64,000 nt of DNA. Source: an uncultured Chloroflexia bacterium. Lineage in GTDB: Bacteria > Chloroflexota > Limnocylindria > Limnocylindrales > CSP1-4. The stretch's first letter is position 1; every line of letters begins with the position of its first letter. Location: NCBI GenBank assembly GCA_963731635.1, contig CAVSWB010000002.1:418465-482464 (forward strand), given 5' to 3'. Shown here one piece after another: positions 32,112 through 59,160 of the stretch. The position numbers and the translations under genes are program-made. The notes beneath the pieces were generated by a model. That model was not told where the DNA came from and searched no databases. It saw only the letters and a program-made list of their open reading frames with translations.

Positions 32112-32197
32112 GGAGAGGTGGCAGAGCGGTCTATTGCGGCGGTCTTGAAAACCGCTGGACGAGAGTCCCGTGAGTTCGAATCTCACCCTCTCCGCCA
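32112..32197 (+). tRNA. tRNA-Ser (anticodon TGA)
   Basis: Acceptor GGAGAGG/CCTCTCC plus discriminator G and CCA. Anticodon stem-loop GCGGT-CTTGAAA-ACCGC with TGA centred. Long variable arm TGGACGAGAGTCCCG, T-arm GAGTTCGAATCTCAC. Class II tRNA length. Confidence 0.85.
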
Positions 32198-32210
32198 AGA
32201 TTGCCCTCGT

Positions 32211-33524
32211 GAAATGGCCCGTCTGGTGCATCGAGCCAGGTCAACGACAGAACACTGGCAGCTTCATGGCAGCTTCGCGAGTACAGTACGGAGCAAGAGC
32301 GAAGGTGCCAGGGTCGGACCGGAAGCCTTCACCGGCGCTCCTGTATCGGAGCAACGCACGGTGGACCAGGAGACCAAACGGCCGAGGCGGTCGGCCGGCG
32401 AAGGGGCCATCTACGAAACCGCGGATGGCCGGCTCCGCGGATCCGTTCTGGTTGACCTCCCAGACGGTCGCCAGAAGCGCGTCTATGTCAGCGGCCGAAC
32501 GCGAGCTGACGTCGTGCGGAAGCTCGACGCGAAGCGCAAGGAAAGCGCTGCCGGCGCGGTGACCGGCGAGACGCTCGGCGAGTATCTCGCCCGCTGGATC
32601 GTCGCCTGCAAGCCGCGTCTTCGGCCTGCGACGCACACCGAATACGCCCGCCACGTCGCCCAATACTGGGCCGCACTGGCCAGGACGCCACTGACACGCC
32701 TTCGGCCGCTTGATGTCGAGCAGAGGCTTGGACAGCTGCTCGAGCGCGGCCTCTCGCCTCAGACCGTCCGGCACGCCCGCTCAACGCTGCGGCGGGCGCT
32801 GAACGACGCAATCCGCGAGGGCATTCTGAACCGCAACGCTGCGGCGCTGGCGCGGCCGCCACGAGTCGCCGGCCGGGAAATGCGGGCGCTCTCCCCATCG
32901 GAGGCTGGCCGTCTCCTCTCGGGGACGGCTGAAGATCCTGGGGGGCCACTCTACGCCGTCGCTCTCGGTACGGGCTGCCGCCTCGGCGAGCTGCTCGGCC
33001 TCTCATGGGACGACATGGCCGACGACGGTGCCTCGATCGTCATCCGACGTTCGCTCGCCGCGGTAGACAACATCGACCCTGAGACCGGCAAGCGACACCG
33101 AACGTGGAGGCTGGCCGAGCCCAAGACGGCCAAGAGCCGACGGACCGTCATGCTCCCGACGATCGCGACTGAGGCCCTGAGGCGTCAGAAGGCCCGCCAG
33201 GCGGCCGCCAGACTTGCGGCCGGTGCAGCGTGGCAGGACCGGCACAACCTCATCTTCACCGACGCGTTGGGCCGCCCCGCGCGCCCGGACAATGTCTCGG
33301 GATACTTCCGCGCGGCGGTCGATAGGCTCGGCCTGCCACACGTTCGCTTCCACGATCTCAGGCATTCCGCGGCGACCCTCATGCTGTCCCAGGGCGTGCC
33401 GCTCAAGGTCGTGAGCGAGACCCTGGGTCATAGCTCGATCGCTATCACTGCCGACGTGTACCAGCACGTCACCCCGGATCTCCGGCGCGAGGCCGCCGAA
33501 GCGATGGACCGGGCCCTGAAGTGA
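32211..33524 (+). CDS. int: Tyrosine-type site-specific integrase
   Basis: C-terminal catalytic domain with R...HDLRHSAATLM...LGHSSIAITADVYQHV (R-H-R-Y tetrad) and an N-terminal SAM-like domain. Directly 3' of tRNA-Ser. Start set at the first ATG after the tRNA. Confidence 0.85.
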   Translation, partial: EMARLVHRARSTTEHWQLHGSFASTVRSKSEGARVGPEAFTGAPVSEQRTVDQETKRPRRSAGEGAIYETADGRLRGSVLVDLPDGRQKRVYVSGRTRADVVRKLDAKRKESAAGAVTGETLGEYLARWIVACKPRLRPATHTEYARHVAQYWAALARTPLTRLRPLDVEQRLGQLLERGLSPQTVRHARSTLRRALNDAIREGILNRNAAALARPPRVAGREMRALSPSEAGRLLSGTAEDPGGPLYAVALGTGCRLGELLGLSWDDMADDGASIVIRRSLAAVDNIDPETGKRHRTWRLAEPKTAKSRRTVMLPTIATEALRRQKARQAAARLAAGAAWQDRHNLIFTDALGRPARPDNVSGYFRAAVDRLGLPHVRFHDLRHSAATLMLSQGVPLKVVSETLGHSSIAITADVYQHVTPDLRREAAEAMDRALK

Positions 33525-33542
33525 CAGTGCGGCTGGCGGGCA

Positions 33543-33770
33543 TCAGCTTCGACCTGACGCGACCTCGCTGATGGCTGAGGACGGAACCAACCGTCGCCGG
33601 CCCACCTTCACACTCCGGATGCGTCGAGCCGAGATCTCCGAATACAGGGCCGACCGGCCGATCCCAAGAGCCCGGGCGGCCTCAGAGATGCTAAGCAGGC
33701 GATCTGGCTCGCGCGCGCTCGGACGAGCTTCAATGGCTATCTCATCGCGCAACGCCTCGACGAGTTCCAT
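33543..33770 (-). CDS. Excisionase/MerR-like HTH DNA-binding protein (Xis-like)
   Basis: LLSISEAARALGIGRSALYSEISARRIRSVKVGRRRLV is an HTH_17/excisionase-type motif. The longer 116-aa ORF is rejected because it overlaps the rep stop. Confidence 0.5.
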   Translation of the reverse strand: MELVEALRDEIAIEARPSAREPDRLLSISEAARALGIGRSALYSEISARRIRSVKVGRRRLVPSSAISEVASGRS

Positions 33771-33889
33771 GACGGCAGCACGCAGCCGGTGGCTCACCAG
33801 GTCAGGTTCGTTCCCGAATGGCCTGCTCGATGACTGGCGCTCGACTCGGTGTAGTCGCTCGGGGGAAGGCCCCCGCCTCTGCAGCTCGT

Positions 33890-35305
33890 TCATGGCGACG
33901 CGCGATTCCGAGACCAGTGGAGTCCCGCTTCACTGCGCCCCGAACGACCCGGCGAGAACGCGCTTGCTCGAAAGCCCGCGGCCACGGCCCGCTCAGCCGG
34001 ACTCAGCCCCGACCCGGCGTAGTGGAAGCTCCGTCGAACAACGATCTGGTCGCCTATGGCCTTGGTGCGAACCTCCGCTAGCCAGGGATCGGCCTGGGCT
34101 TGGTATTCCGCCCGGACGGCTCGGAGAGCCGAGAACGTTACGGAGTAGCGTCGGGCTTTGGTTAGGAAGTGGCCACGAAAGCCGAGGTTGTGCGCCCAGC
34201 GCGGGCTGATGGTCCAGGCAGATCGCATGAGCGAGCGGGCATGATCCGAGAGCTCGGCTCGCTCGATCACGGCGCCCACTCGGATCCGTTTGTCAAGTCC
34301 GCCCGCGGCTCCTGCGTCCTTTGTTGCGTACTTTGCTAGGTACGATGCGATTGCCGTCCGATCGCCGTCGTCACGGTTCGCGTTGCGCTCTACGGGCCGG
34401 ACGTCGACCTGCATGCCCCAGCGGATCATCAACTCGCGACCGTCGGGTCCTGCCACCGTCACCGCTACTCGCGCCGCGGTGCGGGCGACGGCCTCCGCTA
34501 GACGCTGCGCCGTCGCTCCGCCCGCCGGCGCGGTGTCGGGACCGTCGGGTCCGTCGAGCCGGATGACCGCATGGACGTGCACGGCACCACGGGCCTGGAA
34601 CTCCGCGACCTTGGCGTAGGCGATGCGGACCTGCGATCGCAGTAGCGCCACGCTAAGTCCGCCCAAGGCCGCGAGCTCGCGTGGTAGATACGTGATCGTT
34701 CGACGCCATAGGGCGCCGAGGTTCGCGTTCCACAGAGCCGCGGCCTCGTAGTCATAGCAGTCGGGGCAGATTGCCTGACCGATCCGGGGATCGCCGTCGG
34801 CATGGCGGTCGAGGCAACGCACCGACACTCCGTGTTCGCAGGTTTCCGCCGGATCATGTGGCCGGCAGGGGCGCACGCCACCCGCGTCGACGATGCGGCG
34901 ATGGACTGCGCCGAACGATGGTGCGGTGAACGTGGCGAACACGAGCGGATGCGAGGCGACAGAGGGCGAGACGCCTCGATCCTCGTCACCCGCCAACCCA
35001 GCCGCCACCAGGAAGTAGGCGTCGCGACGATATCGCTCCGAGCACGGTGGGCAGCGCGACTCGCGTCGGTTGCCGCAGGCGACGAGGACGAAGCCTGGGG
35101 CCTGCGCTCTCGTCGACCGCCGAGCCAGGACTGCTCCCGAGCGTCCCGAGACCGCGACCGACTCACCTTCGAGGCGGATCGGCGACGTGCAGCCGCCGGT
35201 TCGGCGGATCAACTCGACGACGGCCGGTGCGCCGGCGCCGTAGCGGCGTGTGAGCACCGCCCAGGACGCCGGCTCGAAGGTCGTGCGAGACGTAGCGACC
35301 AGCAT
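33890..35305 (-). CDS. Replication initiator protein of actinomycete integrative element type (RepSA/pSAM2-like)
   Basis: Conserved blocks FATFTAPSFGAVH, RCLDRHADGDPRIGQAICPDCYDYEAAALWN and GAVHVHAVIRLDG are typical of RepSA-like rolling-circle initiators. Start moved to the internal ATG (MLVATSR), dropping a 110-aa Arg-rich wrong-frame extension. Confidence 0.6.
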   Translation of the reverse strand: MLVATSRTTFEPASWAVLTRRYGAGAPAVVELIRRTGGCTSPIRLEGESVAVSGRSGAVLARRSTRAQAPGFVLVACGNRRESRCPPCSERYRRDAYFLVAAGLAGDEDRGVSPSVASHPLVFATFTAPSFGAVHRRIVDAGGVRPCRPHDPAETCEHGVSVRCLDRHADGDPRIGQAICPDCYDYEAAALWNANLGALWRRTITYLPRELAALGGLSVALLRSQVRIAYAKVAEFQARGAVHVHAVIRLDGPDGPDTAPAGGATAQRLAEAVARTAARVAVTVAGPDGRELMIRWGMQVDVRPVERNANRDDGDRTAIASYLAKYATKDAGAAGGLDKRIRVGAVIERAELSDHARSLMRSAWTISPRWAHNLGFRGHFLTKARRYSVTFSALRAVRAEYQAQADPWLAEVRTKAIGDQIVVRRSFHYAGSGLSPAERAVAAGFRASAFSPGRSGRSEAGLHWSRNRASP

Positions 35306-35315
35306 CACCCTTGCC

Positions 35316-35741
35316 TCAGGCGCCCTGCTCCGCGCGGTGGAGCGCCTGCGGGACCTGCCCTTTCGGCGTCGCTGCACGCACGGCAGTCGCTCGGAACGAC
35401 CAGGCCTGGCGCGGCCGGGATCCCGAGGTATCCACGTAGGCAGTCGCCGTGAGACCCTCGAACGACACCGCGGGGAACGGGGACCCCGCCGGAGCCTGGG
35501 GAAGAACGGGCGCAGTGCGAGACGCGATCTTGACCCGGACGACCTTGGTTCGCGCCTCGGGATCGGCGTCGAACACCGAGATCGCCCACAACGGAAGTCC
35601 CGAGTCTCGATCGTGCGCCTGGACCCGTTGCTCACGGGTCGAGGCCTCGAAGTCGATGACCTGCTCTACGCCGCCAACCGCGTATGCCCCATGCGGGAAC
35701 AACAGCTCGCTGGTGATGGGAATGTGTCTGCTAAGTGCCAT
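35316..35741 (-). CDS. Hypothetical protein (island-borne, upstream of rep)
   Basis: 141-aa ORF with coding-like composition, co-oriented and contiguous with rep (11-bp gap). No recognisable motif. Confidence 0.4.
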   Translation of the reverse strand: MALSRHIPITSELLFPHGAYAVGGVEQVIDFEASTREQRVQAHDRDSGLPLWAISVFDADPEARTKVVRVKIASRTAPVLPQAPAGSPFPAVSFEGLTATAYVDTSGSRPRQAWSFRATAVRAATPKGQVPQALHRAEQGA

Positions 35742-35837
35742 GACATTCGCTCCTATGTGGTTTGGAACAGCCAGAAACAGCCGACGCTTTGCTCACAGCT
35801 ATCGCCGTGAAGAGCTCGCGTAGGGGCTCTGAAATGT

Positions 35838-36185
35838 GGGGGCGAGCGCTCTCTTTTGGTCCGGTGTGCCTTACCGGGACCTGCGCCAATCGCCACCGAA
35901 AACGCTAGGCCGACCGATCCGGACAGTCAAGAAGTGTGCGTACGGCCTTGCGTACCATTTGCGGCACGAAATTCCCGAGCAATCGTCCGGAGTCTGCAAC
36001 TGGTCGTTCCAGTTCCATCGACAAGCTCGCGGAGGCGGTCCGGGAAAGTTGGGGCGAGCGCTCTCTTTTGGTCCGGTGTGCCTTACCTGGACCTGGGCCA
36101 ATCGCCACTGAAGACGCTAGGCCGACCAACTGGGAGAGTCAACGTCTTCTGCGTACCATTCGGCGTACCATCGGGAGCAGAATCC
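35838..36185. repeat. Two copies of a ~140-bp direct repeat (unit ggggcgagcgctctcttttggtccggtgtgccttacc-ggacctg-gccaatcgccac-gaa-acgctaggccgacc...) separated by ~70 bp
   Basis: Copy A runs from 35838 and copy B from 36047. The first ~100 bp are over 90% identical, then a divergent tail still shares gagtcaa...tgcgtaccat. Non-coding by ORF inspection. Lies between the rep cluster and the protease gene. Confidence 0.7.
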
Positions 36186-36559
36186 GGTTGAGACACCGTC
36201 AGGGGGTGTGGAAACGACACTCCTGAGCTCGGTGGCTGGCCGAGATCGCGCGCCAACCGCAGCTTCACGCCGGGCCTGTCGGTGTCAACGACGGCTTTCG
36301 CCAGATCGCTGCGACCGGCGAGTGTGGCCCGATGCACGGGGTCATCGGGCGGGTTCGCCTCTTATCGCCGCGATCCGCTCGTCGAAGCACCCCGGGAGGG
36401 GCGGTGGCTTGTTACGACTTTCTCTACGAGATCGAGATCGGGATCCAATACTTGACTATGGCAATGACAAGAGACCAAGATAGGCTGGCTTAGGGGGGAG
36501 CACCAATGAGGGTTTCCAGATCGGCGATCCGCCTCCTTGGGCACGGAAAGGGCGGTCCG

Positions 36560-37864
36560 ATGCCTAGGAACGTATCACGCCGGATTCCGCTGGCCGCAAT
36601 AGCTGGCGTCCTAGTGGCAGCGACGGCGATGGGAGCGCAGACCGGTTATGCGGCCGCCGCGACGCCATACCCCGGCGAAACGCTCGACCCAAGCGGGATC
36701 TCCCTGGTGGGGCTGACTCCGTACCAGGTCCGAACTATCAATGACCAGCAGGCTCAGGCATATTCGAGTGCCATGGATCTGGCCCAGAGGAACCCGAACG
36801 ACATGGGGTATCCGTGGCTTGATACCGCCACCAACGTGCTGACCTTCGCTCCGACAACTGGTCGGGGGGAATCACTCGCCGTGGCAGCCACGACCGCAGC
36901 CACGACCGGCTCTGTGTCTCGGTCCATCCAACCGGCACAGGCCTCGATCGCTCGACTTTCGAACATCGCTGACTTGGTGACGCGTCTCAACGCCAAGGGT
37001 GTCGCGCACGCAGATCTGATCTGGAAAACATCGCCGGACGAAGAGCACAATCGGACCATCATCACTGTCAGCGCCCTCAACAGCGACCTGATGTCCACCC
37101 TAGCAACGTCGTTTGGCACCAATCTCATCGCAGTTCGGATAGACCCGCACAAGCTAATGGCATCCTCGGACACCCGTTCGAGGGACACAAGCCCGTTCTG
37201 GGGAGGAGCCAACGTTTACGTTCCCGCGGGCCAGTGCTCCACCGGGTTCCCTTGGAACGTCGGTGGTGGCGTCTACGGCATGCTGACCGCAGGGCATTGC
37301 GCGCCTACGGGCGGCACCGTATCTAACGCTGCTTACTATCCCAACACCTGGGGGACTGTCACCAGCGGTTCCGAAGAGAACTGGCAAACCGGCAGCGGTA
37401 CGGCCTACTACAACGGGCAGAGCACCTATAGGGGCGATGTGTCGCTTATCCGCATCGACCACGGAGCCACGTCCCAGGCCGAGATCTATACCAATGACGG
37501 CACCACCAGCCGGATAGTGGGCGCAATGAGTGGCTGGGTTGGTCTCGGAAACTCCGTCTGTTTCAGTGGCAACGTTACGAACTATTGGTGTGGCATGGTC
37601 ACCGAGACAGGCGTGAATATGTGGTACGCCGGCGATGGGGTGAACGTTTGGGCGAGGAACGTTGACGATGCGTCTGCCGTAGGGGCCACGTGTCCGACAC
37701 ATGGCGACTCCGGCGGCCCCGTCTATCAGTGGCGCTCCGACGGGAGAGCGATCGCGCAGGGCATCCTGAGCGGGTCAGCGCCGGAAATTCTCGCTTGCGA
37801 CATGTTCTTCACCGACATCAATAACTCGTACATCGCGCTCCCTGGTTACTTGATGGTGAGTTAG
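36560..37864 (+). CDS. Secreted S1 (chymotrypsin-fold) serine protease, alpha-lytic/streptogrisin-like with N-terminal pro-region
   Basis: Signal peptide RRIPLAAIAGVLVAATAMGAQTGYAAA. Catalytic His in LTAGHCA and Ser in GDSGGPVY. Pro-domain plus mature domain layout of S1E proteases. Confidence 0.8.
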   Translation: MPRNVSRRIPLAAIAGVLVAATAMGAQTGYAAAATPYPGETLDPSGISLVGLTPYQVRTINDQQAQAYSSAMDLAQRNPNDMGYPWLDTATNVLTFAPTTGRGESLAVAATTAATTGSVSRSIQPAQASIARLSNIADLVTRLNAKGVAHADLIWKTSPDEEHNRTIITVSALNSDLMSTLATSFGTNLIAVRIDPHKLMASSDTRSRDTSPFWGGANVYVPAGQCSTGFPWNVGGGVYGMLTAGHCAPTGGTVSNAAYYPNTWGTVTSGSEENWQTGSGTAYYNGQSTYRGDVSLIRIDHGATSQAEIYTNDGTTSRIVGAMSGWVGLGNSVCFSGNVTNYWCGMVTETGVNMWYAGDGVNVWARNVDDASAVGATCPTHGDSGGPVYQWRSDGRAIAQGILSGSAPEILACDMFFTDINNSYIALPGYLMVS

Positions 37865-37942
37865 CGATCGCACGAGGATATCTATGATCTGAGGGCGGGC
37901 GGCCACTAGGTCGGCCCGCCTTCTCATGACCGTGCACCGACT

Positions 37943-38401
37943 TTGACGTTTCGCCGACCAGCAAAGGGAATTGTGCCGATGACATCAGATGTGGGTGAAG
38001 CCACCCAGCGAACCAGGAGGAGGAGGCCCAAGGTGAGGCGACGCTGGCTTGCGGCGGCGGTGTGCCTCGTTGTGGTCCTATTGTCAATACGTGCTCTAGA
38101 CCGCGATACGCGGATCGACTACTACCGAGTCCTCGACCCGCAGACGATCGGCGTTGAGACTACTGGCGGGGCGGACTCATGGACACGGATCACGAGCGTG
38201 GTTGAGACTTCGTCGAGCGTGACGATCAAGGTCAGCTCGCTTTCGGTGCCTTTCCTGCCCGGCACGGCGGACGGCAGGTTCGTGGAACTTAGCGTAAGGC
38301 TGAGTCAGCCGCTCGGAGTGCGGGCGGTCATCGATGGCAGTCGTGGCGACACGCTCGCTCCAGCGCCGAGTCCCTGGCCCCCGCAACTCGGGAATCCCTA
38401 G
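37943..38401 (+). CDS. Hypothetical membrane-anchored protein
   Basis: Arg-rich N-terminus then a single TM (WLAAAVCLVVVLLSI) and about 100-aa extracytoplasmic domain. A minus-strand ORF overlaps (38177..38650), so this call is weak. Confidence 0.35.
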   Translation: MTFRRPAKGIVPMTSDVGEATQRTRRRRPKVRRRWLAAAVCLVVVLLSIRALDRDTRIDYYRVLDPQTIGVETTGGADSWTRITSVVETSSSVTIKVSSLSVPFLPGTADGRFVELSVRLSQPLGVRAVIDGSRGDTLAPAPSPWPPQLGNP

Positions 38402-38929
38402 GAGCTTGGGCGACCGGTCTGGGTCCCGAGTCGACACGACGAACTCGCGGTCATCCACGGATAACCGCAGCGGTGCTCGGAACAACGCCACTTCTGTAGC
38501 ACACCCAGCCCCGGCGCGGGATCGCGAGATCGATCGTTCCGACGCGGGTGTCCCAGCGGTGTTCCCGATATCTATTGCGGGTTGTTCGGCATCGCCGTCC
38601 GCACTCGCCTTCCGCAGCATCTCGAGCACGGCCATCCTGTCCTCGGCCATCGCGGTGTTCCTTTCGTCGTCGGTTGCAACTCCAACGACGCGAGAATGAC
38701 GCGATGGCCGCTGTTGTGGTCGGCCGGTTCAGCTGTTACACCACGTTGCTGGGTGATCTAGTCAACAGTCTATTGACATTGGCGGTACGCTGACTTTGGT
38801 TCGGTCGAGACCGCGAGGGCGGTGGCAGGAGACTCCGGCGAGGGAATTGGGGTCCGACGTCAGCGACTTGGTCCGTAGAAGCTGCTGCCACGGCGTCGGG
38901 CCTCAAAGCGTTCGTTGGAGGGAAGCGCA

Positions 38930-39841
38930 ATGAGTTTCTCAGTTGATGGAACCCTGGCCTACCCGAGACATGGAGGCCGATGCAGGTGGTCCGTCTTTGG
39001 TGCCCTGGTCGTCGCGTGCGCGATAGCCGTTCTCGCCGCGTCGCCAGCTTTCGCAGCCGATCCGAATGTCACAGTCCAATCGACGAGCGGCTCACCAGGA
39101 ATCGCGATTGATCCGAATGGTCCACGCACGCCAGCACAGCTGGGATACACCCAATCCTACGCTGACGCCAAGCACGCCCAGTTCAATGCCGCGGTCGCAG
39201 CCAAGACAACATCCGGGAACGTATCGCCGGCAGGCCAATACTATTCCGAGCAGCTGAATGGCTACGTCCAGTACCACCAGAAGACAGACCACTGGTGCCT
39301 AGCGGCCGATCTTCAGAGCCTCCTCGCGTGGAACTTTGGGACTGCCACGTACGTCGGGTCCAGCGTGCTGACGCATCAAACGACCATCGCGACAGCCATA
39401 AATACGGGCCCATATGGAGCCGACGACTATACCGCCCTTGCGTACGCAAATAGCGCGTTCAGCTATTGGGGCAAGAACTTCCGCTATGTTCCGACCTACG
39501 ACATGACGTCCGCCGCCTTTCAGAACCAGATTACAAACGAGATCGACATCTACTACGAACCCCTGTACGCCCGGGTCAACGTCAGCAGTCCCTACTACGT
39601 TTGGCATCAAACAGGCACTGCATACCACGCGACATTGAGCGTCGGATACTCAAGCAATGGTTTGACTACCATGATCGGCGATCCGTTCACCGCCAGCACG
39701 AGCGGCTGCCCGGAAGGCATCGGCTATCCAGGCTACAGCCCTAACCCTGACTATGGCTGTGTCTACTGGGGTTTCTCTACCTCTAGCTACTACAGGGCCG
39801 TGAGCGGCATGGTCAATGGCGAGGACCCGGAGTGGTTCTAG
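38930..39841 (+). CDS. Secreted protein, putative papain-like/C39-like cysteine peptidase
   Basis: Signal peptide VFGALVVACAIAVLAASPAFAADP. Candidate Cys-His dyad in DHWCLAADLQSLLAW and TAYHATLSVGY. Lower GC than surroundings. Confidence 0.45.
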   Translation: MSFSVDGTLAYPRHGGRCRWSVFGALVVACAIAVLAASPAFAADPNVTVQSTSGSPGIAIDPNGPRTPAQLGYTQSYADAKHAQFNAAVAAKTTSGNVSPAGQYYSEQLNGYVQYHQKTDHWCLAADLQSLLAWNFGTATYVGSSVLTHQTTIATAINTGPYGADDYTALAYANSAFSYWGKNFRYVPTYDMTSAAFQNQITNEIDIYYEPLYARVNVSSPYYVWHQTGTAYHATLSVGYSSNGLTTMIGDPFTASTSGCPEGIGYPGYSPNPDYGCVYWGFSTSSYYRAVSGMVNGEDPEWF

Positions 39842-39863
39842 TTCCGGGCCTGGAAGACCGCGC

Positions 39864-47152: not shown

Positions 47153-47173
47153 TGAGCGGGCGCGGCGGTTGCC

Positions 47174-49830: not shown

Positions 49831-50002
49831 ACATTGTGAGCGTGAATTGGCCATTTTCGTGGCCTAAACGGGCCCTTTGTGTCCAAAGCCGGTAGCAATC
49901 GTCGGTAGCAACGGCGCACACAGCCGAACAACGCCGAACAGAACGCAGCGGTCCTCGAGACCGAGCCATTGCCAGCACCGGTGGTCTTTCTAAGCCTCGT
50001 CG

Positions 50003-50233: not shown

Positions 50234-50259
50234 GGCGGCCGAGCCCTAGAAGGTTCTAG

Positions 50260-51945: not shown

Positions 51946-52643
51946 CAGATGCCTCCTTCGGCCGCCGTGACAGGCCTGAGGCTCGCTGACGGCTTCGCGA
52001 TCCGGAGGGTTACAACGACGACCGTGCAGGCTAGCCAGAGCGCGTAAAGCGGGTAAGGCAGGTACGCGCTCAGCCATCCGTCGGCGGCCAGCGGCCCACC
52101 GTCGATGACAATTCCACACACCGGGATCAGCTGAGCGACGGCGGCTGCCAGCGAGAGCCATCCGAGCCAGGCCGGGAAGATCGCAGCCCGGAATATGAGC
52201 ACGGCGACCGCAAGCAGCATCACCGCGAGCGGCAGGTTTGCGACCACGAATAGGGCATCCATGATTCCTATGAGCGCGGGCTGACCCGCGTCATGCGCGG
52301 CGCTGGCGAGGCCGACCTGGAAGGCGAGCGCCGCGAGCGTGATCGCCGTCGACGCGACGCCCGCGCCCATCGCCAGGTTCGACAGCCGGGCGCTGCCACC
52401 TTCGGCCTGCGAGAGGAAGCTCCGCAGGCTCCCGAGGAACCAGAGGAAGAAGCCAGCGCCGACAACGAACAGCAGGGCTTGAGCCCGGAGCGCCCCCTGA
52501 TTCTCCGCGTAGTGCGCGACGATCGTCGCGACCGGATCGCTCGCACTCAGCGCGCCGCGCTCAAACAGCATCGCGGCAGCGCCAGTCGCGATCGCGCCGA
52601 AGCCACTTGCGGCGCCCCAGCACTCCCATTGCATCTCGTTCAT
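51945..52643 (-). CDS. Membrane protein (4-6 TM), unknown function
   Basis: Hydrophobic helices alternating with short loops. Coupled to the downstream membrane protein gene. Confidence 0.5.
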   Translation of the reverse strand: MNEMQWECWGAASGFGAIATGAAAMLFERGALSASDPVATIVAHYAENQGALRAQALLFVVGAGFFLWFLGSLRSFLSQAEGGSARLSNLAMGAGVASTAITLAALAFQVGLASAAHDAGQPALIGIMDALFVVANLPLAVMLLAVAVLIFRAAIFPAWLGWLSLAAAVAQLIPVCGIVIDGGPLAADGWLSAYLPYPLYALWLACTVVVVTLRIAKPSASLRPVTAAEGGI

Positions 52644-52671
52644 GACAGCACTCCTTGTCTGTGTCGTTCGC

Positions 52672-53106
52672 TCAGCTGACCAACACGGCTGCGGATGGCC
52701 AGCGCAGCCAGAGCACGGCGACGAGGACGGCGACGTTCACGGCCAGGGCCGCGAAGGTGTTGAACATCGGCCACGTACCGAAGAAGAGCGTGATCCCGGC
52801 GATCGAGGCGAGCGCGGACGCCACGGCCAGCGGCCGCCAGACGCTGCCCGGGATGACGACGCCCCAGAACGACATCGCCGCGATGGCGAATCCGGCCAGC
52901 GACGCGATCCAGAGCGCACTGGCGAGCGTCGTCGCCGTGTCCGTCGGAAGGGACGGGACGAGCCACGAGCGGGCCGCGAGCCAGCCGCCCGTCGGCGTGC
53001 CGGGGCGGAACCGGATCCACGCCAGAGCTCCCAGGGCTCCGCCATGGCCGAGCCCGTGCAGGAGCAGCACACCGGCTGCAACGAGCTTGATGGTCTGGTC
53101 AGACAT
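52672..53106 (-). CDS. Hypothetical 4-TM membrane protein (paralog of 50260..50715)
   Basis: See the paralog. Start at the ATG giving MSDQTIKLVAAGVLLLHGLGHGG. Confidence 0.5.
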   Translation of the reverse strand: MSDQTIKLVAAGVLLLHGLGHGGALGALAWIRFRPGTPTGGWLAARSWLVPSLPTDTATTLASALWIASLAGFAIAAMSFWGVVIPGSVWRPLAVASALASIAGITLFFGTWPMFNTFAALAVNVAVLVAVLWLRWPSAAVLVS

Positions 53107-53110
53107 GTCT

Positions 53111-53551
53111 CTACGCCTCCTGTGGCTCGACACGGAACACGGGGTGGTCAGCGGGGTCGGGGAGCGCCGCAAAGAACTCGCGTGCCCGCCAACCCATGTG
53201 CTCGCGGTAGGCGGTCACGACACGGTCGTGTTCGTCGCCGCAGACCTCGACCGCGCGGAACGGCTCGTGCGTCCGGCCCCTCCGCAACTCGCCCTCTCCG
53301 GCAGCCCGCAGGTTGCGCACCCAGTGCGTCTCGCCGCCGCCCGAGACCAGGTAGCGACCGCCTTCGAACTCGAGCGTGGGGACAGGCGTCCTGATCGGGC
53401 GACCCGTTCGGCGACCGCGCACCGTGAGCGTGGGGCCGCCGAGCCAGAGCGTGATGGGGTTCACCACGCGGCTCATGAAGAACCGCGAAGGCACGTACGG
53501 ACGCGGTCCCGGCTCCTTCGTGGACATCGGATCGTCAATCTGCTGCATCGG
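53111..53551 (-). CDS. Deazaflavin (F420H2)-dependent nitroreductase/oxidoreductase, DDN family
   Basis: Signature TGRPIRTPV..EFEGGRYLVSGGGETHWVRNL..GEGEL matches the DDN/PPOX-class F420-dependent family (TGRPR.....DG.YYLV.S.GG....WYRNL). Length about 146 aa. Confidence 0.7.
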   Translation of the reverse strand, partial: PMQQIDDPMSTKEPGPRPYVPSRFFMSRVVNPITLWLGGPTLTVRGRRTGRPIRTPVPTLEFEGGRYLVSGGGETHWVRNLRAAGEGELRRGRTHEPFRAVEVCGDEHDRVVTAYREHMGWRAREFFAALPDPADHPVFRVEPQEA

Positions 53552-53807
53552 AAAGCTCCTTCGATTGTTCGGTTGTCGGCGCTCGGACCTCCGCCGACTC
53601 GGCCGCGGCGTGGATGAGTTGCGCAGCAATGAGCCCAAGGCCCGCGTCCCGCAGTCGGGTCATCAGCCCGTACAGGGCGGCTTGATCGACGGCGGCGAAG
53701 ATCAGCAGCGAGTCGCCGCCCGGCAGCAGCCGGAGCTCTTCGCAACCAAGGAAGCGGGCGCGTCGCTGGTCGAGGTGGCCGGCGACTCGGATCTCGTAGC
53801 GGTTCAT
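53535..53807 (-). CDS. Small hypothetical protein
   Basis: 90-aa ORF between the LAL regulator and DDN (MNRYEIRVAGHLD...). No motif recognised. Confidence 0.3.
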   Translation of the reverse strand: MNRYEIRVAGHLDQRRARFLGCEELRLLPGGDSLLIFAAVDQAALYGLMTRLRDAGLGLIAAQLIHAAAESAEVRAPTTEQSKELSDAAD

Positions 53808-53923
53808 GCCACGATGTTCGGGCTCGGGCATCGCAGACGCGCCTCGCGGAAGGCCGGTCTTTGGGCGCTCGCGTCCCCTGCCAAAAGGAGGGGATCAGGC
53901 AGGGACGAGGCGCCGCCGCGGCT

Positions 53924-56644
53924 TCAGACGAGACCGATCTGCTGGGCGCGCAGGAGCGCCTGGGTTCGGCTCGTCGCGCCGAGCTTGGCGAGAACGTGGC
54001 CGACGTGCCACTTCGCCGTGCCGAGCGAGACTGTCAGGCCAACGGCGATCTCCGCGTTGCTCGCGCCATGGGCCATCAGGCGCAAGACATCGAGCTCGCG
54101 GGCGGTGAGCGTCTCGAGCAGGCGCCCGTCGGCGCCCTGCCGCACCGATGTGCCGGGCACGGGTGGCTGCTGCGAGCCGGCCTCGGTCGGCTCGGTGGCG
54201 AAGGCGCCGATCATAAGGTCCACGAAGGCGGGTGCAACCGGGCGGACGAAGGGCATGAGGTTGGCAATGGGTAGTCCGTCATCGACGAACCGCCGGACGT
54301 AGCCGCCGGGAGCGGCGAGCTCGACCGCCCGTTCCAGTGAGCGCAAGGCGTCGTTTCGACGACCCATCGCGTTGGCAACCACCGCCTCCAGGACGCCGAT
54401 CGAGATAAGGTCAGCCACGGCTCCGGCGGCTTCCTGCGCCTCCTTCGTCCGAGCGAGCAGCTCGCGAGCCTCCTCGAACCTGCCCTGAGCCAGGCGTACC
54501 CGGGCGATCGTCGTGTCCATCGAGCGACGCAGAACCTCCATGAGAGGCGAGCCCGCTGGTGCCTCCGGTATCGCCTGGTCTGCCCAACGCGCGGCGCCGG
54601 CAACATCGCCCATCCTGAGGAGGACACGGGCCTCGGTCTCAGCGGCGACCCCCGGGAGCGCCATGCCGGTCGAGCGAAGGTCACGTTGACTGATCCGGAG
54701 CGCCTCGAGCGCGGCCGCTTCGTCGCCGCAGGCGAGGCGAACCAGCGCGAGGTACGAGATCGCCCAGCCGAGCACGGGACGCCCGACCCCCATCCGGCGT
54801 GCCGCCTCGAATCCCGCCTCGAGCTCGCGACGGGCCTCGACGAGGTCGTTGGCTTCGTAGCGGACGATGCCGAGCACCACGCGCGCGGGCCAGGCGATCG
54901 TTCGGGGTCGGCTCTGTCCATCGGCCTGTTGTGCGAGGACGGTGCGGCAGATGGTTTCGGACTCGCCGCGCAGGCCGACGAGTGTAAGAGCGTGGCATAG
55001 CGGGTTGACTGCGGGCAGGACGGCCATCGGGTTGCCGGCCTCAAGCGCTGCCCGGTAGCCCGCCCGCAGCGTGTCGACGGCGGGACCGTATTCCCCTCGC
55101 GCGAGCGATCCAAGGCCTGCAGCCAGCAGCCCAAACGAGCGGAACAGCGGATCTTCGCCCATGAGCCCGAGTCCCTCGATCGCCAGGCTCTCTGCGTTCG
55201 GCCCGGTTACCGTCGCCATCATTGCCCGGAGGATGAGCAGTCGCCCCTCGGCCGGCCCGCGCGCTCCGGACGAGACAACATGACTCTCCGCGAGGGCCAC
55301 CGCCGCGCCGACCTGGCCCGTCTCGAACAGCCCCCACGCCTGTAGCGAGACCAGCTCCGGGCTTTCTATGACCCGCTCCCCGGGCAAGGCATCGAGCCAG
55401 CCGAGGAGCGTCACGAGCTCGCCGGCCTCGAACGCCGGCCGGGCCGCGCGCTCGATGAGTTGGAGCGCAAGATCGATCGCGCCCGCGGCCAGGGCGTGCT
55501 CGATCGCCTCGGACGCGAGACCCGCCGCCTCGAACCAGCCCGCGGCACGCTCATGGAGCTCGCGTCGGGCGTCTTCGGCGATCTGGGCGCGGAGGTAGTC
55601 GGCGAAGAGGCGGTGGTAGCGATACCAGCGCCGCTCGGCATCGAGTGGGACGAGGAAGAGGTTCGCCCGCTCGGCCCGTTCGAGGAGAGCGGCGGCGTCG
55701 GGGCGACCAGTGAGCTCGCGACAGAGTCCGGCTGTGAACCGCTCGGCGACCGATATCTGGACCAGGAACGCGCGAAGCTCCTCATCGACGCCGCTGAGGA
55801 CCTCGTCGGCGAGGTAGTCGAAGACGAACCGCTGGTTGCCGCCGAAGGCCTCGATGAGTGCCGCCGGGTCAGGCCGGTCGCGCAGCGAGATCGCCGCGAG
55901 CTGGAGGCCTGCAATCCAGCCCTCGGTTCGCTCGACGAGGACTTCGACGAGGCGGGGCTCGAGCGAGATGCCCACGGCCGCGAGGTAAACAGACGCTTCA
56001 TCGCTGGTCCACCGCAGGTCTCCGGCCCGGAGCTCGACGAGCCGGCCGTGGGCCCGGAGCCTGGCTAGCGGCAGCGGTGGGTCCTCGCGCGTTAGCAGGA
56101 CGAGATGGACGAACGGCGGTTCACGTTCGATCAGGAACCGAACGAGGCGATGGACAGGCTCCGCGGTGATGAGCTGGTAGTCGTCGATGACCAGCACGAA
56201 CTGGTCGTCGCTCGCGGTCAACGCATCGACCAGCGAAGCGCTGACGAGCTCCGGGCTCGGGGTCGACCCGGGCCCGAAGAGGTCTGCCGCGTTGGCAGCC
56301 GCCGGTCTGACTGTTGCCAGGGCCGCGGCGAGGTACCGGGTGAAACGCGCGAGATCATTGTCGGCGGGATCGAGCGAGAGCCAGGCGTAGCCGATCCCCC
56401 GGGACCCGAGCCAGTCGACGGCGGCGACGGTCTTCCCATAACCAGGTGGAGCCGAGAGCAGGATCAGCCGCGTGCTGTCCTCGAGTCCGCGATCGAGCAA
56501 TGCGCTGAGCCGCTGCCGTTCTCGATGACCCGCGCCCGTGGCCGGTGCCCGCAGCTTCGTTGAGACGAGCGGCGCCACAAATGCTCGCTCCTGGGGTTGG
56601 GAGCGAGCGACGCGCGGGGCTGGCGCGCTTGATGGGTTCATCAA
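53924..56644 (-). CDS. LAL/MalT-type large ATP-binding LuxR-family transcriptional regulator
   Basis: N-terminal P-loop NTPase (LLSAPPGYGKT), long TPR-like helical middle, and C-terminal LuxR HTH (LTARELDVLRLMAHGASNAEIAVGLTVSLGTAKWHVGHVLAKLG). 906 aa. Confidence 0.75.
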   Translation of the reverse strand: MMNPSSAPAPRVARSQPQERAFVAPLVSTKLRAPATGAGHRERQRLSALLDRGLEDSTRLILLSAPPGYGKTVAAVDWLGSRGIGYAWLSLDPADNDLARFTRYLAAALATVRPAAANAADLFGPGSTPSPELVSASLVDALTASDDQFVLVIDDYQLITAEPVHRLVRFLIEREPPFVHLVLLTREDPPLPLARLRAHGRLVELRAGDLRWTSDEASVYLAAVGISLEPRLVEVLVERTEGWIAGLQLAAISLRDRPDPAALIEAFGGNQRFVFDYLADEVLSGVDEELRAFLVQISVAERFTAGLCRELTGRPDAAALLERAERANLFLVPLDAERRWYRYHRLFADYLRAQIAEDARRELHERAAGWFEAAGLASEAIEHALAAGAIDLALQLIERAARPAFEAGELVTLLGWLDALPGERVIESPELVSLQAWGLFETGQVGAAVALAESHVVSSGARGPAEGRLLILRAMMATVTGPNAESLAIEGLGLMGEDPLFRSFGLLAAGLGSLARGEYGPAVDTLRAGYRAALEAGNPMAVLPAVNPLCHALTLVGLRGESETICRTVLAQQADGQSRPRTIAWPARVVLGIVRYEANDLVEARRELEAGFEAARRMGVGRPVLGWAISYLALVRLACGDEAAALEALRISQRDLRSTGMALPGVAAETEARVLLRMGDVAGAARWADQAIPEAPAGSPLMEVLRRSMDTTIARVRLAQGRFEEARELLARTKEAQEAAGAVADLISIGVLEAVVANAMGRRNDALRSLERAVELAAPGGYVRRFVDDGLPIANLMPFVRPVAPAFVDLMIGAFATEPTEAGSQQPPVPGTSVRQGADGRLLETLTARELDVLRLMAHGASNAEIAVGLTVSLGTAKWHVGHVLAKLGATSRTQALLRAQQIGLV

Positions 56645-57009
56645 GCATCAGGGTAGCGCGCGCAACATCCCCTGTACCGCCGAGACCGGCCCTGAGACAC
56701 CAGCGTCGGGACCGCTCCCCCAGAGCTTGGATTTGCGTCGTGCTGGCCGACATCGAGACTGGAGAGCGGGAATGGGCACGTCATCTTGGGCGTTAACCCC
56801 GAAGGCAATATTGACGTGCCCGACTCTACCAAGCCCAACGGTTGGGTAGGCCTGGCCGCGCAGAGTATGTCTCCAAGCGACCCGACACGGGTCCCTCTTG
56901 TTGTCCTCCTGCTCGGAACCGTGCTCCGCGGAGTCATCTTCACCCGCCGCGCCCTGCGCTGGGTCGACGTAAACGCTGCGCTCGCGCGGACGGAGGCCGC
57001 TGGCGTCTA

Positions 57010-57052
57010 GCACTACAAGATATTGACTGTAGTGGTACCACTCGTGTAGTGT
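57010..57052 (+). promoter_or_regulatory. Putative promoter/operator of the second AbiE module: inverted repeat CACTACA-agatattgac-TGTAGTG around a TTGAC -35-like box
   Basis: Palindromic arms flank ttgact 10-50 bp upstream of the 57059 start. AbiEi proteins are known to autoregulate through inverted repeats in their promoter. Confidence 0.3.
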
Positions 57053-57058
57053 CAGCGC

Positions 57059-57826
57059 ATGAGCGAGAAGTCCGAAGGCGCCAAACTGGTTGAGGTGGTG
57101 CACCTGGCGTTCCTCCAGGTTCTGCCTTCCTATATGCCGGTTGGCGACTACGTTGTAAAGGGCGGAGCGAACCTGCGTCTGTGGTTTGACAGTCGCAGAC
57201 GGTCCCAGGACATCGATCTTGACTACCTGCGGGCAGAACGTTTCTACCTCGTAGAGGATCAGATCGACAAGACCCTGGCTGCCCGCGCGTTCCGCGAGAT
57301 CCTCCGCTCCGGAGGCGTGTCGATCTCTGACCCAACCAAGCCGAAGCAGACCTCGACGACCCGCCGATGGAAGTTCGTCGCGAGCGGTCCAGCGGGCCTG
57401 TTGAACACGAAGATCGAATTCTCGTCGAGGGTTGGAACGGTGGATCCCGAACATGCCTTCCAGCAGGCTCGTGCCGACGTAGGCGCCGGCCTCGGCCTCC
57501 GGGTCGTAAAGGCTGAGCACTACCTAGCACCGGCCGCGATCCGCCAGAAGATCGGCGCGCTTGCAGGCCGCTCCGAGACCGAACCCAGAGACGTGTTCGA
57601 CCTTGACCTTCTTTTGGGCGCATACCCGAACGCTCTGACGCCGGGGCACGTGGACCCAGCCTTGATCGACAAGGCTGTCGCCGCGGCTATGGGCATCGCC
57701 TACGACTCCTACCATGACCTCGTGGTTGACTTCCTCGAAGAGGAATTCGTGCCCATCTACGGCCGGCCGGACGTCTGGACCAGCATGGTGCTCGAGGTCG
57801 TCGAGCGCCTTGAGGCTTTGAAGTGA
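57059..57826 (+). CDS. AbiEii-like nucleotidyltransferase toxin (DUF1814 family)
   Basis: NTase motif VKGGANLRLWFDSRRRSQDIDLDY and conserved C-terminal basic region. Followed by an overlapping AbiEi-like gene. Confidence 0.65.
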   Translation: MSEKSEGAKLVEVVHLAFLQVLPSYMPVGDYVVKGGANLRLWFDSRRRSQDIDLDYLRAERFYLVEDQIDKTLAARAFREILRSGGVSISDPTKPKQTSTTRRWKFVASGPAGLLNTKIEFSSRVGTVDPEHAFQQARADVGAGLGLRVVKAEHYLAPAAIRQKIGALAGRSETEPRDVFDLDLLLGAYPNALTPGHVDPALIDKAVAAAMGIAYDSYHDLVVDFLEEEFVPIYGRPDVWTSMVLEVVERLEALK

Positions 57827-58434
57827 GCTTGCTCGAAGCCGAGACCATCCTCGACCGGATCGGGCCGGTCATCGAGACGCGAGAGGCGGCCGCGGCCTTG
57901 TTGCGCAGCGTTCCTTCGACCAGCCGTACTCTGGGCGCCCTCGCCGAGGCCGGCCATGCCCACAGGATTCGCCACGGCCTGTGGTCCATCGGACCGACGC
58001 CGCCGGATCCTTACCAGATCGTAGGCGATCTGACCCGGCCGCATCCTTCATACGTGTCCTTCCAGTCCGCGCTCAACTTCCATGGGATGATCGATCAGAT
58101 CCCGCGCGACACCACGGTAGCCTCGCTCGATCGCGCCCGCCGGATCACGACGACGATCGGCACCTACGCGGTCCACCACATCCCAGGCGAACTCTTCGGC
58201 GGATGGACCAAGGGGACGCGGGGACGCGTAGCGACGCCCGAGAAGGCCATCTTTGACCTCGCGTACATCAGCGCGGCGCGAGGCGCGCCGCCTCGTCGCG
58301 TACCCGAGATCGATCTGCCAGCGGGCTTCGATCGCGCCGCGATCGACGAGTGGATCGCCAAAATAGCCGACCCGCGCATCGCCACCATGACCAACAGGGG
58401 TGTGCGACAGATTCTGGCGAGGGCCGTTCGCTAG
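57823..58434 (+). CDS. AbiEi-like antitoxin (wHTH), located downstream of its cognate toxin
   Basis: N-terminal region LLRSVPSTSRTLGALAEAGHAHRIRHGLWSIG resembles the AbiEi N-terminal wHTH (..RV.RGVY..). C-terminal domain about 120 aa. 4-bp overlap with the toxin gene. Confidence 0.55.
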   Translation: MSLLEAETILDRIGPVIETREAAAALLRSVPSTSRTLGALAEAGHAHRIRHGLWSIGPTPPDPYQIVGDLTRPHPSYVSFQSALNFHGMIDQIPRDTTVASLDRARRITTTIGTYAVHHIPGELFGGWTKGTRGRVATPEKAIFDLAYISAARGAPPRRVPEIDLPAGFDRAAIDEWIAKIADPRIATMTNRGVRQILARAVR

Positions 58435-58595
58435 GGGTAGTTGCGGGATGGCCGTGGTCTCGAATCCTGGGTCGTCTACCGGTAGCAACAGCCGGTGGCA
58501 ACAGAGCCGAACACCGGCGGATTCGGGGCCCTAGAATCGCCCAATTCCCTCGTGAATCGGTCATCCACGGACCCCCGCGAACGCGCTGAGTGAGA

Positions 58596-58654
58596 CTTGA
58601 AAACCGCTGGACGAGAGTCCCGTGAGTTCGAATCTCACCCTCTCCGCCAAGATT
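58596..58654 (+). repeat. Direct repeat (attR-like): exact copy of the 3' 59 nt of tRNA-Ser(TGA)
   Basis: Identical to 32144-32202. Flanked on both sides by the ccggtagcaac-motif repeat family. Confidence 0.8.
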
Positions 58655-59160
58655 TTGAGCGTGGATCGGCCGTTGCGGTCGCCGAAAACCGGCCCGACTT
58701 GTCCGAAGCCGGTAGCAACAGCCGGTAGCAACAGCCTACGCGGCCGAGCGACGCCGAACGGAACGCAGCGGTTCCAGGACCGAAGGCGCTGCTCCTCCAC
58801 ACAGCCCGTCGACGGGCGATTAGGGGAGTAGCCGCTGACTAGATCTGGGCATTCGAGCTCGAGGTCTGGCTCGGCGAACTGGACCGGCATTCGGTGCGCG
58901 TCGGGCTGTATGCCGAGGGCGTTGACGGCGGTGTCCCGGTGCGGCAGGAGATGAAGCGCGGTCGACGGCAGGCGGGCACGGCTGGCAGCTTCGTCTACGG
59001 CGCGGTCGTAGGAGCGGACCGCTCGGTTTCGGACTACACGCCCCGAGTGATTCCGCACCGCGCCGGAGTTTCGATACCACTGGAAGACTCGCGCATCCGC
59101 TGGCAGCGTTGATCGGCCGAGAAGTATTGCCCGGGACTCGGGTTCCTGTGGAAGCTATAG

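Follow-up and report, generated by a model that had tools for sequence, protein, structure and literature searches.

A tRNA-Ser(TGA) gene followed by copies of its 3' half

We analysed a 64-kb stretch of DNA (contig CAVSWB010000002.1, referred to as the window) in which a tRNA-Ser(TGA) gene is followed by a row of small elements bounded by copies of the 3' half of this tRNA, very probably a tandem array of integrative elements. The gene, located at 32112-32197 on the + strand, is the sole tRNA gene of the window (tRNA-Ser(tga) according to ARAGORN; Rfam tRNA 56.9 bits). Downstream of it we distinguish element 1 (32198-41356), which starts with the gene of the tyrosine integrase Int1, element 2 (41411-49776), element 3 (49831-58595) and an arm without an element body (58655-58856), the latter three showing neither an integrase nor an integrase remnant in tblastn searches with Int1 and with the integrase of L160 (related loci and contigs are given by L numbers). 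Four core copies of the tRNA 3' half, O1 to O4, all on the + strand, bound these units. O1 is the 3' part of the intact tRNA gene (32144-32202, delimited by an exact repeat) and represents the attL core; O2 (41357-41410, variant B) folds as tRNA-Ser in a chimera and is identical to a junction fragment of L088; O3 (49777-49830, variant C) is identical to the 3' half of an intact tRNA-Ser in L098 and to a fragment in L157; O4 (58596-58654) is of variant A and matches O1 exactly over 59 nt.

An earlier reading of this DNA, made from its letters without database searches (the sequence-only reading), had described the last 59 nt of the tRNA as recurring exactly 26.4 kb away. The exact repeat is confirmed (32144-32202 equals 58596-58654), its composition is different: it comprises the last 54 nt of the tRNA, starting with tRNA nucleotide 33 as the first base of the anticodon loop, followed by the five nucleotides AGATT past the tRNA's 3' end, which lacks CCA. 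The two internal tRNA 3'-half copies reported at 41357-41410 and 49777-49830 are present as described, a pattern of T arm and acceptor end finding exactly four sites in the window, i.e. the four cores, with 0 expected in shuffles. O2 and O3 show 72% and 76% identity to the copy within the tRNA over 76 nt.

The similarity extends well past the tRNA-derived part. Approximately 164 nt are common to the three fragment copies with homologous arms on both sides, and apart from the match between O1 and O4 the junctions are 62-79% alike over these 164 nt. Aligning the junctions, as had been proposed, reveals one architecture for all copies, namely a P arm, the tRNA 3' half and a P' arm, so that the hybrid junctions postulated in the sequence-only reading are borne out, the length of the repeats beyond the tRNA having been overlooked there. 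The window together with its relatives provides 46 copies of the 3' half which fall into 16 distinct sequences. Variant A is the commonest of these (23 of the 46 copies, among them the intact tRNAs in L009 and L006), and since this is the case, identity of O1 and O4 is to be expected without any recency; the exact outer repeat need not mark a single recent 26-kb event.

Paired short repeats in the attachment arms

Each copy shows the same order of features, the tRNA 3' half being followed by a conserved box of ~20 nt, a further ~40 nt, two direct 9-10-mers spaced 11-13 nt from start to start, and a conserved tail. The segment that separates int1 from the intact tRNA (32198-32360) can be aligned to the DNA 3' of each fragment, and a second homologous arm is found upstream of each fragment. 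Paired short repeats are present ~95-117 nt upstream and ~60-85 nt downstream of each core.

The two arms of element 1 carry repeats of their own. In the P'1 arm (32198-32360, +), which can be aligned to the P'-type arm of every other copy, TGGCAGCTTC occurs at 32256-32265 and 32267-32276, and in the P1 arm at the right end of the element (41204-41356, +) TGGCAGCTTC at 41241-41250 is paired with TGGCATCTTC, differing by one mismatch, at 41253-41262. The same right arm with its TGGCAGCTTC/TGGCATCTTC pair is retained in L144, L142 and L118. The arms of elements 2 and 3 contain GGTAGCAAC-type pairs instead, located at 41471/41484, 49660/49673, 49891/49904 and 58481/58494. Alignments place the P'2 arm at 41411-43029 (+), split by an IS3-family insertion sequence (IS) into 41411-41492 and 42811-43029, with GGTAGCAAT at 41471 and GGTAGCAAC at 41484; the region 42808-42928 shows 95.9% identity to L098. 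The 9-mer pattern and the P-arm alignment define the P2 arm at the right end of element 2 (49655-49776, +; GGTAGCAAC at 49660 and 49673) and the P3 arm at the right end of element 3 (58476-58595, +; GGTAGCAAC at 58481, GGTGGCAAC at 58494). The P'3 arm (49831-51091, +; direct repeats and alignments) consists of a proximal part (49831-49966, repeats at 49891 and 49904) and a distal part (50965-51091), and the body-less arm at 58655-58856 (+, alignment) carries GGTAGCAAC at 58711 and 58724.

Altogether GGTAGCAAC is found in eight copies in the window compared to 0.21 expected, all on the + strand; seven lie within the arms of the three fragment junctions, the eighth (50966) in the duplicated tail of P'3, and copies with one mismatch to GGTAGCAAC complete the pairs. 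Conservation across the family coincides with the repeats: in 25 distinct P arms the identity amounts to 40-60% upstream of the first 9-mer and to 90-100% from there to the core, and in 19 distinct P' arms both 9-mers are 90-100% conserved within a background of 40-70%. The arm repeats covary with the element and with the integrase lineage and occupy equivalent positions in both arms. Their position on both sides of the core, their pairing, their conservation and their lineage-specific sequence suggest the 9-10-mers being most likely candidate arm-type sites of the cognate integrase in a lambda-like attP.

A further motif, GCCGAACA / GGCGAACA-like, directly follows the 9-mer pair in P and P' arms, the P arm of element 1 included (in the window e.g. 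49684-49700, 49913-49945 and 41263-41285), and is a candidate site for an excisionase or a host factor. An extra exact TGGCAGCTTC is found at 58983-58992, 330 nt right of the last core; it is single and may be due to chance. We also considered a structured RNA in the arm tail and rejected it, no Rfam match being found there; the matches in the Rfam scan were the tRNA, the frameshift pseudoknot of the IS3 and, on the strand opposite to the tRNA halves, hits below the threshold. Among viral contigs the arm pattern gave no match.

The copies retain the helices of a working-type tRNA

Joining the 5' half of the window tRNA to each of the fragments results in chimeras which are all called tRNA-Ser(tga) by ARAGORN. 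For a covariation alignment we used 13 of the 16 distinct variants, i.e. those without a deletion in the variable or the T arm. In these the helices of variable arm and T arm are paired in 99.1% of cells, with compensatory changes in five of the nine helix pairs and 21 double-change cells, an extent of covariation reached by none of 500 shuffles, and with the pairing collapsing to 19-52% in slid registers. The fragments thus keep the tRNA helices via compensatory changes, showing that the copies are under a tRNA-type constraint.

Host and related loci

The gene for a short-chain dehydrogenase/reductase (SDR) beside the tRNA has its nearest relatives, with 77-83% amino acid identity, in 12 metagenome-assembled genomes (MAGs) labelled Chloroflexi or Chloroflexia (genome-collection scan), suggesting the host probably belongs to the Chloroflexota and is not an actinomycete. 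L012 has the SDR gene, the tRNA-Ser, 3.7 kb of further sequence and then a P-type ATPase gene as found right of the array in the window, and the tRNA-Ser of L009 is identical to the window gene (86/86 nt). In L012 and L009 the intact tRNA is directly followed by GGTAGCAAC-containing sequence without an integrase. Synteny beyond SDR and tRNA is poor in the GTDB relatives, the ATPase being present in L012 only and the tRNA lying 9 kb from the SDR gene in L006 and L009.

A metagenome scan with the 9-mer-pair pattern extended the comparison, at least 33 of the 80 loci listed belonging to the family, which is thereby represented in contigs from peat and fen. As these loci were picked by the arm pattern, independent evidence comes only from their being linked to tRNA-Ser fragments, integrases and cargo. 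L081 and L160 contain an intact tRNA-Ser, a GGTAGCAAC pair at the same distance as in the window and then an integrase with 47% identity to Int1. Because in these two loci the GGTAGCAAC arm lies between tRNA and integrase, the arms are element DNA and not host flank. In eight contigs a P arm and a fragment are followed by unrelated sequence, representing the true chromosomal flank. The GGTAGCAAC-type integrase is frameshifted in L095. Furthermore, in L150 (2881-3185) and L097 (1-137) it shows an in-frame-looking deletion joining amino acids 4-82 to amino acids 388-410; these two are integrase loss caught in progress.

Units of the window recur in other combinations. L118 contains element 2 with 94.7% identity over 4409 nt, lacking both IS and bounded by two fragments, and here an element-1-type arm lies in front of element 2. 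In L133 the SDR-tRNA region shows synteny with that of the window (83% nucleotide identity), and an element-2-like primase-helicase unit, with no element 1, comes right after the tRNA. A block consisting of 3' half, arm and CcdA-thioredoxin cargo is common to L012, L142 and L118 (L118 and L012 being 96% identical over 2167 nt, the L142 flank identical to that of L012), and what precedes it is the intact tRNA in L012, an element-1-type arm in L142 and, in L118, such an arm together with element 2. The three are hence occupancy states of one locus with zero, one and two extra units. The right end of element 3 (AbiEii, AbiEi, P arm) is found in eight contigs with 88-94% identity, where the sequence to its right is of at least four different kinds, two different chromosomal flanks among them. 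Parts of elements 2 and 3 lie contiguously in L137 and L098, which are fusion derivatives. The cargo of other integrase-less units consists of ABC exporters, toxin-antitoxin-like pairs or membrane proteins. In L093 (~427-562), L133 (~2938-3080) and L137 (~760-896) we observed a second, P-arm-like GGTAGCAAC pair ~100 nt after the P' pair and before the primase-helicase gene, which may be the scar of a nearly empty unit.

The possibilities raised earlier, that relatives have the 26-kb segment without a tRNA or that the internal copies are part of a dispersed repeat, are at odds with these data: in ~1.4 Mb of related loci and in at least 33 metagenome contigs among the matches listed, the repeats occur only at tRNA-Ser arrays.

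Model of tandem accretion and alternative explanations

We consider it highly probable that small integrative elements have accumulated in tandem in this region by repeated tyrosine-integrase recombination at one tRNA-Ser(TGA) 3' half. Successive integrations at this tRNA had been proposed in the sequence-only reading and are now supported by the anatomy of the junctions, the covariation of the arms, the tRNA constraint and the polymorphism of the units in relatives. According to the model the attP of each element consists of a P arm of ~120-150 nt, a tRNA copy of functional type which reaches completely from the anticodon loop to the 3' end, and a P' arm of ~160-260 nt. Strand exchange would take place in or near the shared CTTGAAA(ACCG) segment of the anticodon loop: the only 5'-end segment common to all copies is CTTGAAAACCG, and the tRNA-derived part always starts at the anticodon loop, both of which point to a crossover there. 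Upon integration the element would provide the tRNA with a new 3' half, the old 3' half remaining at its far end, and repeated rounds would generate the P-core-P' junctions between neighbouring units. In a possible scenario, a chromosome with variant A would have received element 3 bringing variant C, then element 2 bringing B and finally element 1 bringing A. This order fits the variant found at each junction; it is not unique, other orders being possible, and L098, which couples variant C with an element-2-type arm, bears on it.

The architecture of the junctions, the covariation of the arms, the tRNA constraint, the presence of a cognate integrase in relatives and the polymorphism of the units are all seen in the data; the point of crossover, the order of arrival and present-day mobility are inferred. 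The GGTAGCAAC sites are those of a sister lineage of integrases, no member of which the window encodes, and elements 2 and 3 would therefore be mobile only with a GGTAGCAAC-type integrase supplied in trans.

The earlier division into three sub-islands up to 58.6 kb holds as far as the division itself is concerned and needs two amendments. The arm at 58655-58856 shows 89% identity over 148 nt to the tRNA flank in L012, and the homologous arm in L012 and L118 leads into the CcdA-thioredoxin cargo, which is absent from the window, ~300 unrelated bases and then the ATPase gene following here. This arm is the vestige of a fourth unit, i.e. the array does not end at 58660. In addition, sub-island 3 may itself consist of two fused units. 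Its P'3 arm is interrupted by a 1.0-kb segment (49967-50964) with two small membrane-protein open reading frames (ORFs) and, on either side of it, a 64-nt copy of the P' tail (direct repeat, 92%; 49903-49966 and 50965-51028), and the tail of the distal arm continues only from the second 64-nt copy. Element 3 may have been formed from two units by a deletion that removed one junction.

Several points weigh against the accretion model or limit its reach. The comparison with empty sites suggested earlier yielded presence and absence of units in relatives and no clean same-species empty site: for close relatives no truly empty tRNA-Ser with an unrelated flank was found, neither an excised circle nor an empty site of the own strain was seen, and in L158, where the intact tRNA has an unrelated flank, a P-core junction nevertheless follows 4.4 kb further. 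Binding of the integrase to the 9-10-mers is read from their position, pairing, conservation and covariation only. The L118 and L012 flanks are 96% identical, yet the adjoining 3' halves differ in the loop of the variable arm; mutation or conversion thus alters the copies as well, and the crossover point cannot be fixed. The assignment to the Chloroflexota depends on MAG labels of relatives of the flanking genes, and the order of the units could in principle be chimeric if the contig is a short-read metagenome assembly.

This latter point leads to the explanation that variants of a polymorphic tRNA-Ser locus were joined via shared repeats during assembly, giving an arrangement of units present in no cell. 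The locus is indeed highly polymorphic in metagenomes and its junctions share 59-164 nt of similar sequence. However, full identity is confined to O1 and O4 and to 59 nt, and the remaining junctions, 62-79% alike over 164 nt, have diverged too far to mislead an assembler; moreover, the adjacency of an element-1-type arm and element 2 is seen again in the independent contig L118, an O3-like junction exists in L157, and a recorded contig of 0.2-1 Mb carries an element 1 gene. We regard an assembly artefact as very improbable. The identity of the outer repeats combined with the difference of the inner ones could instead be read as the result of one event, in which a 26.4-kb composite assembled elsewhere recently entered the tRNA in a single integration and brought its internal junctions along. 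Neighbouring units can stay together, as the element-1-type right arm located directly before element 2 in L118 illustrates, and co-mobilisation of adjacent units has been proposed for cis-mobilizable elements (CIMEs) and for ssrA islands (PMC3146451). The attP of such a composite would, however, pair the P3 arm (GGTAGCAAC) with the P'1 arm (TGGCAGCTTC), and no one integrase matches both. The units also occur separately (L133 has an element-2-like unit and lacks element 1, L142 has an element-1-type arm and lacks element 2), and with variant A making up 23 of 46 copies the identity of O1 and O4 would be expected anyway, which renders a single composite integration unlikely.

A different origin would apply if the GGTAGCAAC flank were the native downstream sequence of the tRNA-Ser, its copies having been generated by segmental duplication or homologous recombination. 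The same flank directly after the intact tRNA-Ser in L012 and L009, with no integrase nearby, is compatible with this, as is the rightmost copy of the window, which is followed by ~300 nt and the conserved ATPase gene as in L012. In L081 and L160, on the other hand, the arm has the tRNA on one side and an integrase gene on the other, and eight contigs have P-core junctions continuing into unrelated flanks. The same 9-mers are present in the P arms across the core, the repeats covary with the integrase lineage, the cargo between the copies is unrelated, and the copies differ by compensatory changes instead of decay. We dropped this explanation as scarcely tenable in view of the integrase-linked arms in L081 and L160 and the unrelated flanks at the terminal junctions.

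Gene content of the elements

The content of sub-island 1 given in the sequence-only reading, i.e. int/xis/rep and a secreted protease, agrees with the results from Pfam, NCBIfam and motif searches. The gene int1 (32361-33524, +; 387 amino acids) begins 164 nt past the tRNA with an inferred GTG start at 32361. Int1 matches Pfam Phage_integrase with 92.1 bits (cut-off 27.1), its RHR/Y motifs being readable as GCRLGE, HDLRHS, GHSS and DVYQH, and shares 47% identity with the integrase of L160. An identity as integron integrase does not fit, the respective NCBIfam models scoring 30-44 bits compared to cut-offs of 265-435, and the units having full P/P' arms and not attC sites. On the opposite strand, xis (33543-33893, -) encodes an excisionase-type HTH protein (Pfam HTH_17 36.7 bits; TIGR01764 excisionase 38.1 bits, cut-off 28.8) and repSA (33890-35635, -) a RepSA-family replication initiator (Pfam RepSA 445.7 bits). 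The NCBIfam RepSA score of 397.8 bits is below the equivalog cut-off of 700, classifying the protein as a divergent family member, and its identity to actinomycete replication initiators amounts to 38-45%. With these genes and its cognate arms, element 1 is probably still able to excise and replicate.

The cargo of element 1 (35636-41203, strand not assigned; Pfam/NCBIfam, repeats, motifs and G+C) comprises three ORFs of at least 300 amino acids between repSA and the right arm, all secreted or lipoprotein-like: an S1 serine protease with TAGHC and GDSGGP motifs (36506-37864) and two function-unassigned secreted or lipoprotein ORFs (38915-39841 and 39816-41096). In exact-protein look-ups the protease was recorded on one short and one large contig, whereas neither the SDR nor the primase-helicase had an entry. 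No FtsK_SpoIIIE or related transfer gene was detected with Pfam and NCBIfam among the element 1 ORFs of at least 300 amino acids or the smaller ones scanned. The G+C content of the cargo is 0.59-0.63 (36-40 kb) compared to ~0.65-0.70 elsewhere, and the G+C content at third codon positions (GC3) is lower as well; a GC3 filter is passed by the flanking chromosomal genes and by almost no ORF of element 1. Elements 2 and 3 do not stand out in their composition. Within the 870 nt that separate the repSA start from the protease gene we observed a 98-nt direct repeat (35833-35930 and 36045-36142, 89% identical, 212 nt apart), which could represent an origin or a regulatory region.

For sub-island 2, Pfam, PADLOC and tblastn confirm the IS3, IS21, AbiE and PrimPol-helicase content and the lack of an integrase. 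The IS3-family element (41493-42807, +; Pfam rve/HTH_21) has a 29-nt inverted repeat and a target duplication AAC and is inserted in the P'2 arm directly past its second 9-mer, which may have disabled element 2. It contains a full-length ALIL programmed-frameshift pseudoknot (41841-41957, Rfam 86.2 bits), suggesting that the IS3 is intact and possibly active. The IS21-family element (43053-45514, -; inverted repeat and Pfam; istA 43890-45467, istB 43111-43893) occupies the spot where an integrase would follow the P' arm and is missing from the otherwise 94.7% identical copy in L118. These are followed by an AbiEi/AbiEii pair (45573-47152, +; Pfam; PADLOC AbiEi 227.8 bits, AbiEii 285.4 bits) and by an AEP primase-polymerase fused to a superfamily-2 helicase (47174-49564, +; Pfam AEP-TOTE 252.8 bits and ResIII; PADLOC PrimPol). 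The primase-helicase, whose module is also present in L118, L133, L093 and L137 with 89-95% identity, is a candidate for the replication module of element 2 or, alternatively, for a defence protein.

Sub-island 3 had been described as containing membrane proteins, a DDN-type reductase-like protein, a LAL regulator and a second AbiE system, and Pfam and PADLOC support this assignment. The cargo at 51088-56644 (-; Pfam) consists of membrane proteins, a DUF4386 protein, an F420H2-dependent reductase-like protein (53111-53638) and a LAL-type regulator (53924-56644), and the right end is formed by AbiEii (57059-57826) and AbiEi (57823-58434) (57059-58434, +; Pfam; PADLOC). Two small membrane proteins of element 3 (50260-50865 and 52672-53172, -) are paralogous, their C-terminal halves being similar.

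Comparison to known integrative elements

Tandem accretion and integrase-less islands flanked by att sites have already been described for AICEs (the integrative and conjugative elements of actinomycetes) of Streptomyces, for CIMEs of Streptococcus and for the ssrA islands of Dehalococcoides. In Streptomyces avermitilis, AICESav3728 and AICESav3708 lie in tandem in one tRNA, the second having inserted into the restored tRNA, so that a short copy of att separates them (te Poele et al. 2008, PMC2440964). Element 1 resembles AICEs of the pSAM2 type in combining a tyrosine integrase, an excisionase and RepSA and in restoring the 3' part of the tRNA. In contrast to these, it has no FtsK/TraB-type transfer gene, Nudix and GntR regulators were not detected with Pfam and NCBIfam, int is convergent with repSA-xis and not part of one operon, and its RepSA, with 38-45% identity to actinomycete proteins, remains below the equivalog cut-off. 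Furthermore, the host is probably a member of the Chloroflexota, and two members of the array lack an integrase. We considered element 1 as an AICE and rejected this, the transfer gene and the actinomycete host both being missing. The identity segment of pSAM2 is reportedly 58 bp long and starts at the anticodon loop, where strand exchange is said to occur. Our literature search found no paper linking RepSA with Chloroflexota.

CIMEs and their tandem accretion are described for the ICESt1/ICESt3 family of Streptococcus thermophilus (Pavlovic et al. 2004, as presented in PMC3146451; review PMC5704250). The likeness is considerable: CIMEs are att-bounded units without recombination or transfer genes, arranged in tandem with an integrase-bearing element at one site, and elements 2 and 3 likewise have cores with P and P' arms at both ends, no recombinase and no transfer genes (Pfam; tblastn), the constellation by which a CIME is defined. 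Arrays of CIMEs evolve by accretion and deletion, for which the fusions in L137 and L098 and the integrase deletions in L150 and L097 are the counterparts here. The target differs, being a tRNA 3' half and not the fda 3' end, as does the phylum. The arm sites of Int1, moreover, differ from those of the integrase-less units in the window, and because of this mobilisation by the adjacent element is unlikely. Unlike CIMEs, the integrase-less units share a conserved P' tail of their own and recur in many contigs with different cargo, suggesting a lineage that propagates and not products of single deletions.

In Dehalococcoides the ssrA islands are arranged in tandem downstream of one small RNA gene, with direct repeats of its 3' end (McMurdie et al. 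2011, PMC3146451), and fifteen of them lack an integration module and were read as possible CIMEs (PMC3146451). Both cases concern tandem islands at one small RNA gene, in what is probably the same phylum. The ssrA islands, however, use the large serine recombinase DsiB, a tmRNA gene, a 20-bp repeat and insertion in the T-loop, whereas the array described here has a tyrosine integrase, lambda-like arms, a 54-nt tRNA copy starting at the anticodon loop, and RepSA.

The attP of phage lambda, in which P and P' arms with arm-type integrase sites flank the core, served for comparison with the arms of the array. A similar layout is seen here in the paired repeats located ~100 nt from the core on one side and ~60-85 nt on the other, which are distinct from the core and lineage-specific, and the N-terminal extension of the integrase (GEGxxYET...) could bind the arm repeats. 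The number and spacing of these candidate sites, two per arm and 11-13 nt apart, are judged from the DNA sequence alone.

Regarding the integrase-less units, we tentatively propose, as a possibility well short of probable, that they are not dead remnants and constitute a self-standing att-only satellite lineage of ~1.7-9 kb, with P and P' arms that are complete and conserved and a functional tRNA 3' half, which would depend on a GGTAGCAAC-specific integrase in trans and whose cargo would be swapped by accretion and deletion. Their F-type P' tail is homologous to that of the integrase-bearing units, yet distinct from it, and the cargo across the units encompasses AbiE, primase-helicase, toxin-antitoxin pairs, ABC exporters and regulators. 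If the proposal is correct, the tRNA-Ser locus of peat/fen Chloroflexota would be an open cassette-like platform on which two integrase lineages differing in arm specificity use one core. The data also suggest small integrase-less units with defence and toxin-antitoxin genes being common in uncultured bacteria of peat and fen.

The window offers a natural record of island growth at a tRNA hotspot with four junctions in one place, complemented by more than 30 related contigs showing single steps, i.e. unit insertion, IS hits, frameshift and internal deletion of the integrase, and fusion. The two integrase lineages, 47% identical and differing in their arm repeats while using an identical core, provide a system for the evolution of arm-site specificity, and the split in arm specificity is a way to ask how co-resident elements avoid cross-mobilisation. 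The RepSA/pSAM2-type module, so far described for actinomycetes, is now found in a background with nearest relatives that bear the label Chloroflexota. Current concepts remain unchanged by this; the value lies in a clean case and in the new host range of the RepSA module.

Right-hand flank of the array

To the right of the array a P-type cation ATPase is encoded at 59161-61819 (-) in two overlapping ORFs, 59966-61819 for the N-terminal and 59161-60111 for the C-terminal part. The split is explained by a frameshift, by decay to a pseudogene or by an error in sequencing. In L098 (1-1757) a homologue of this ATPase (88% nucleotide identity) lies on the 5' side of the tRNA-Ser and not beyond the array, a placement representing either a rearrangement compared to the window and L012 or a chimeric contig.

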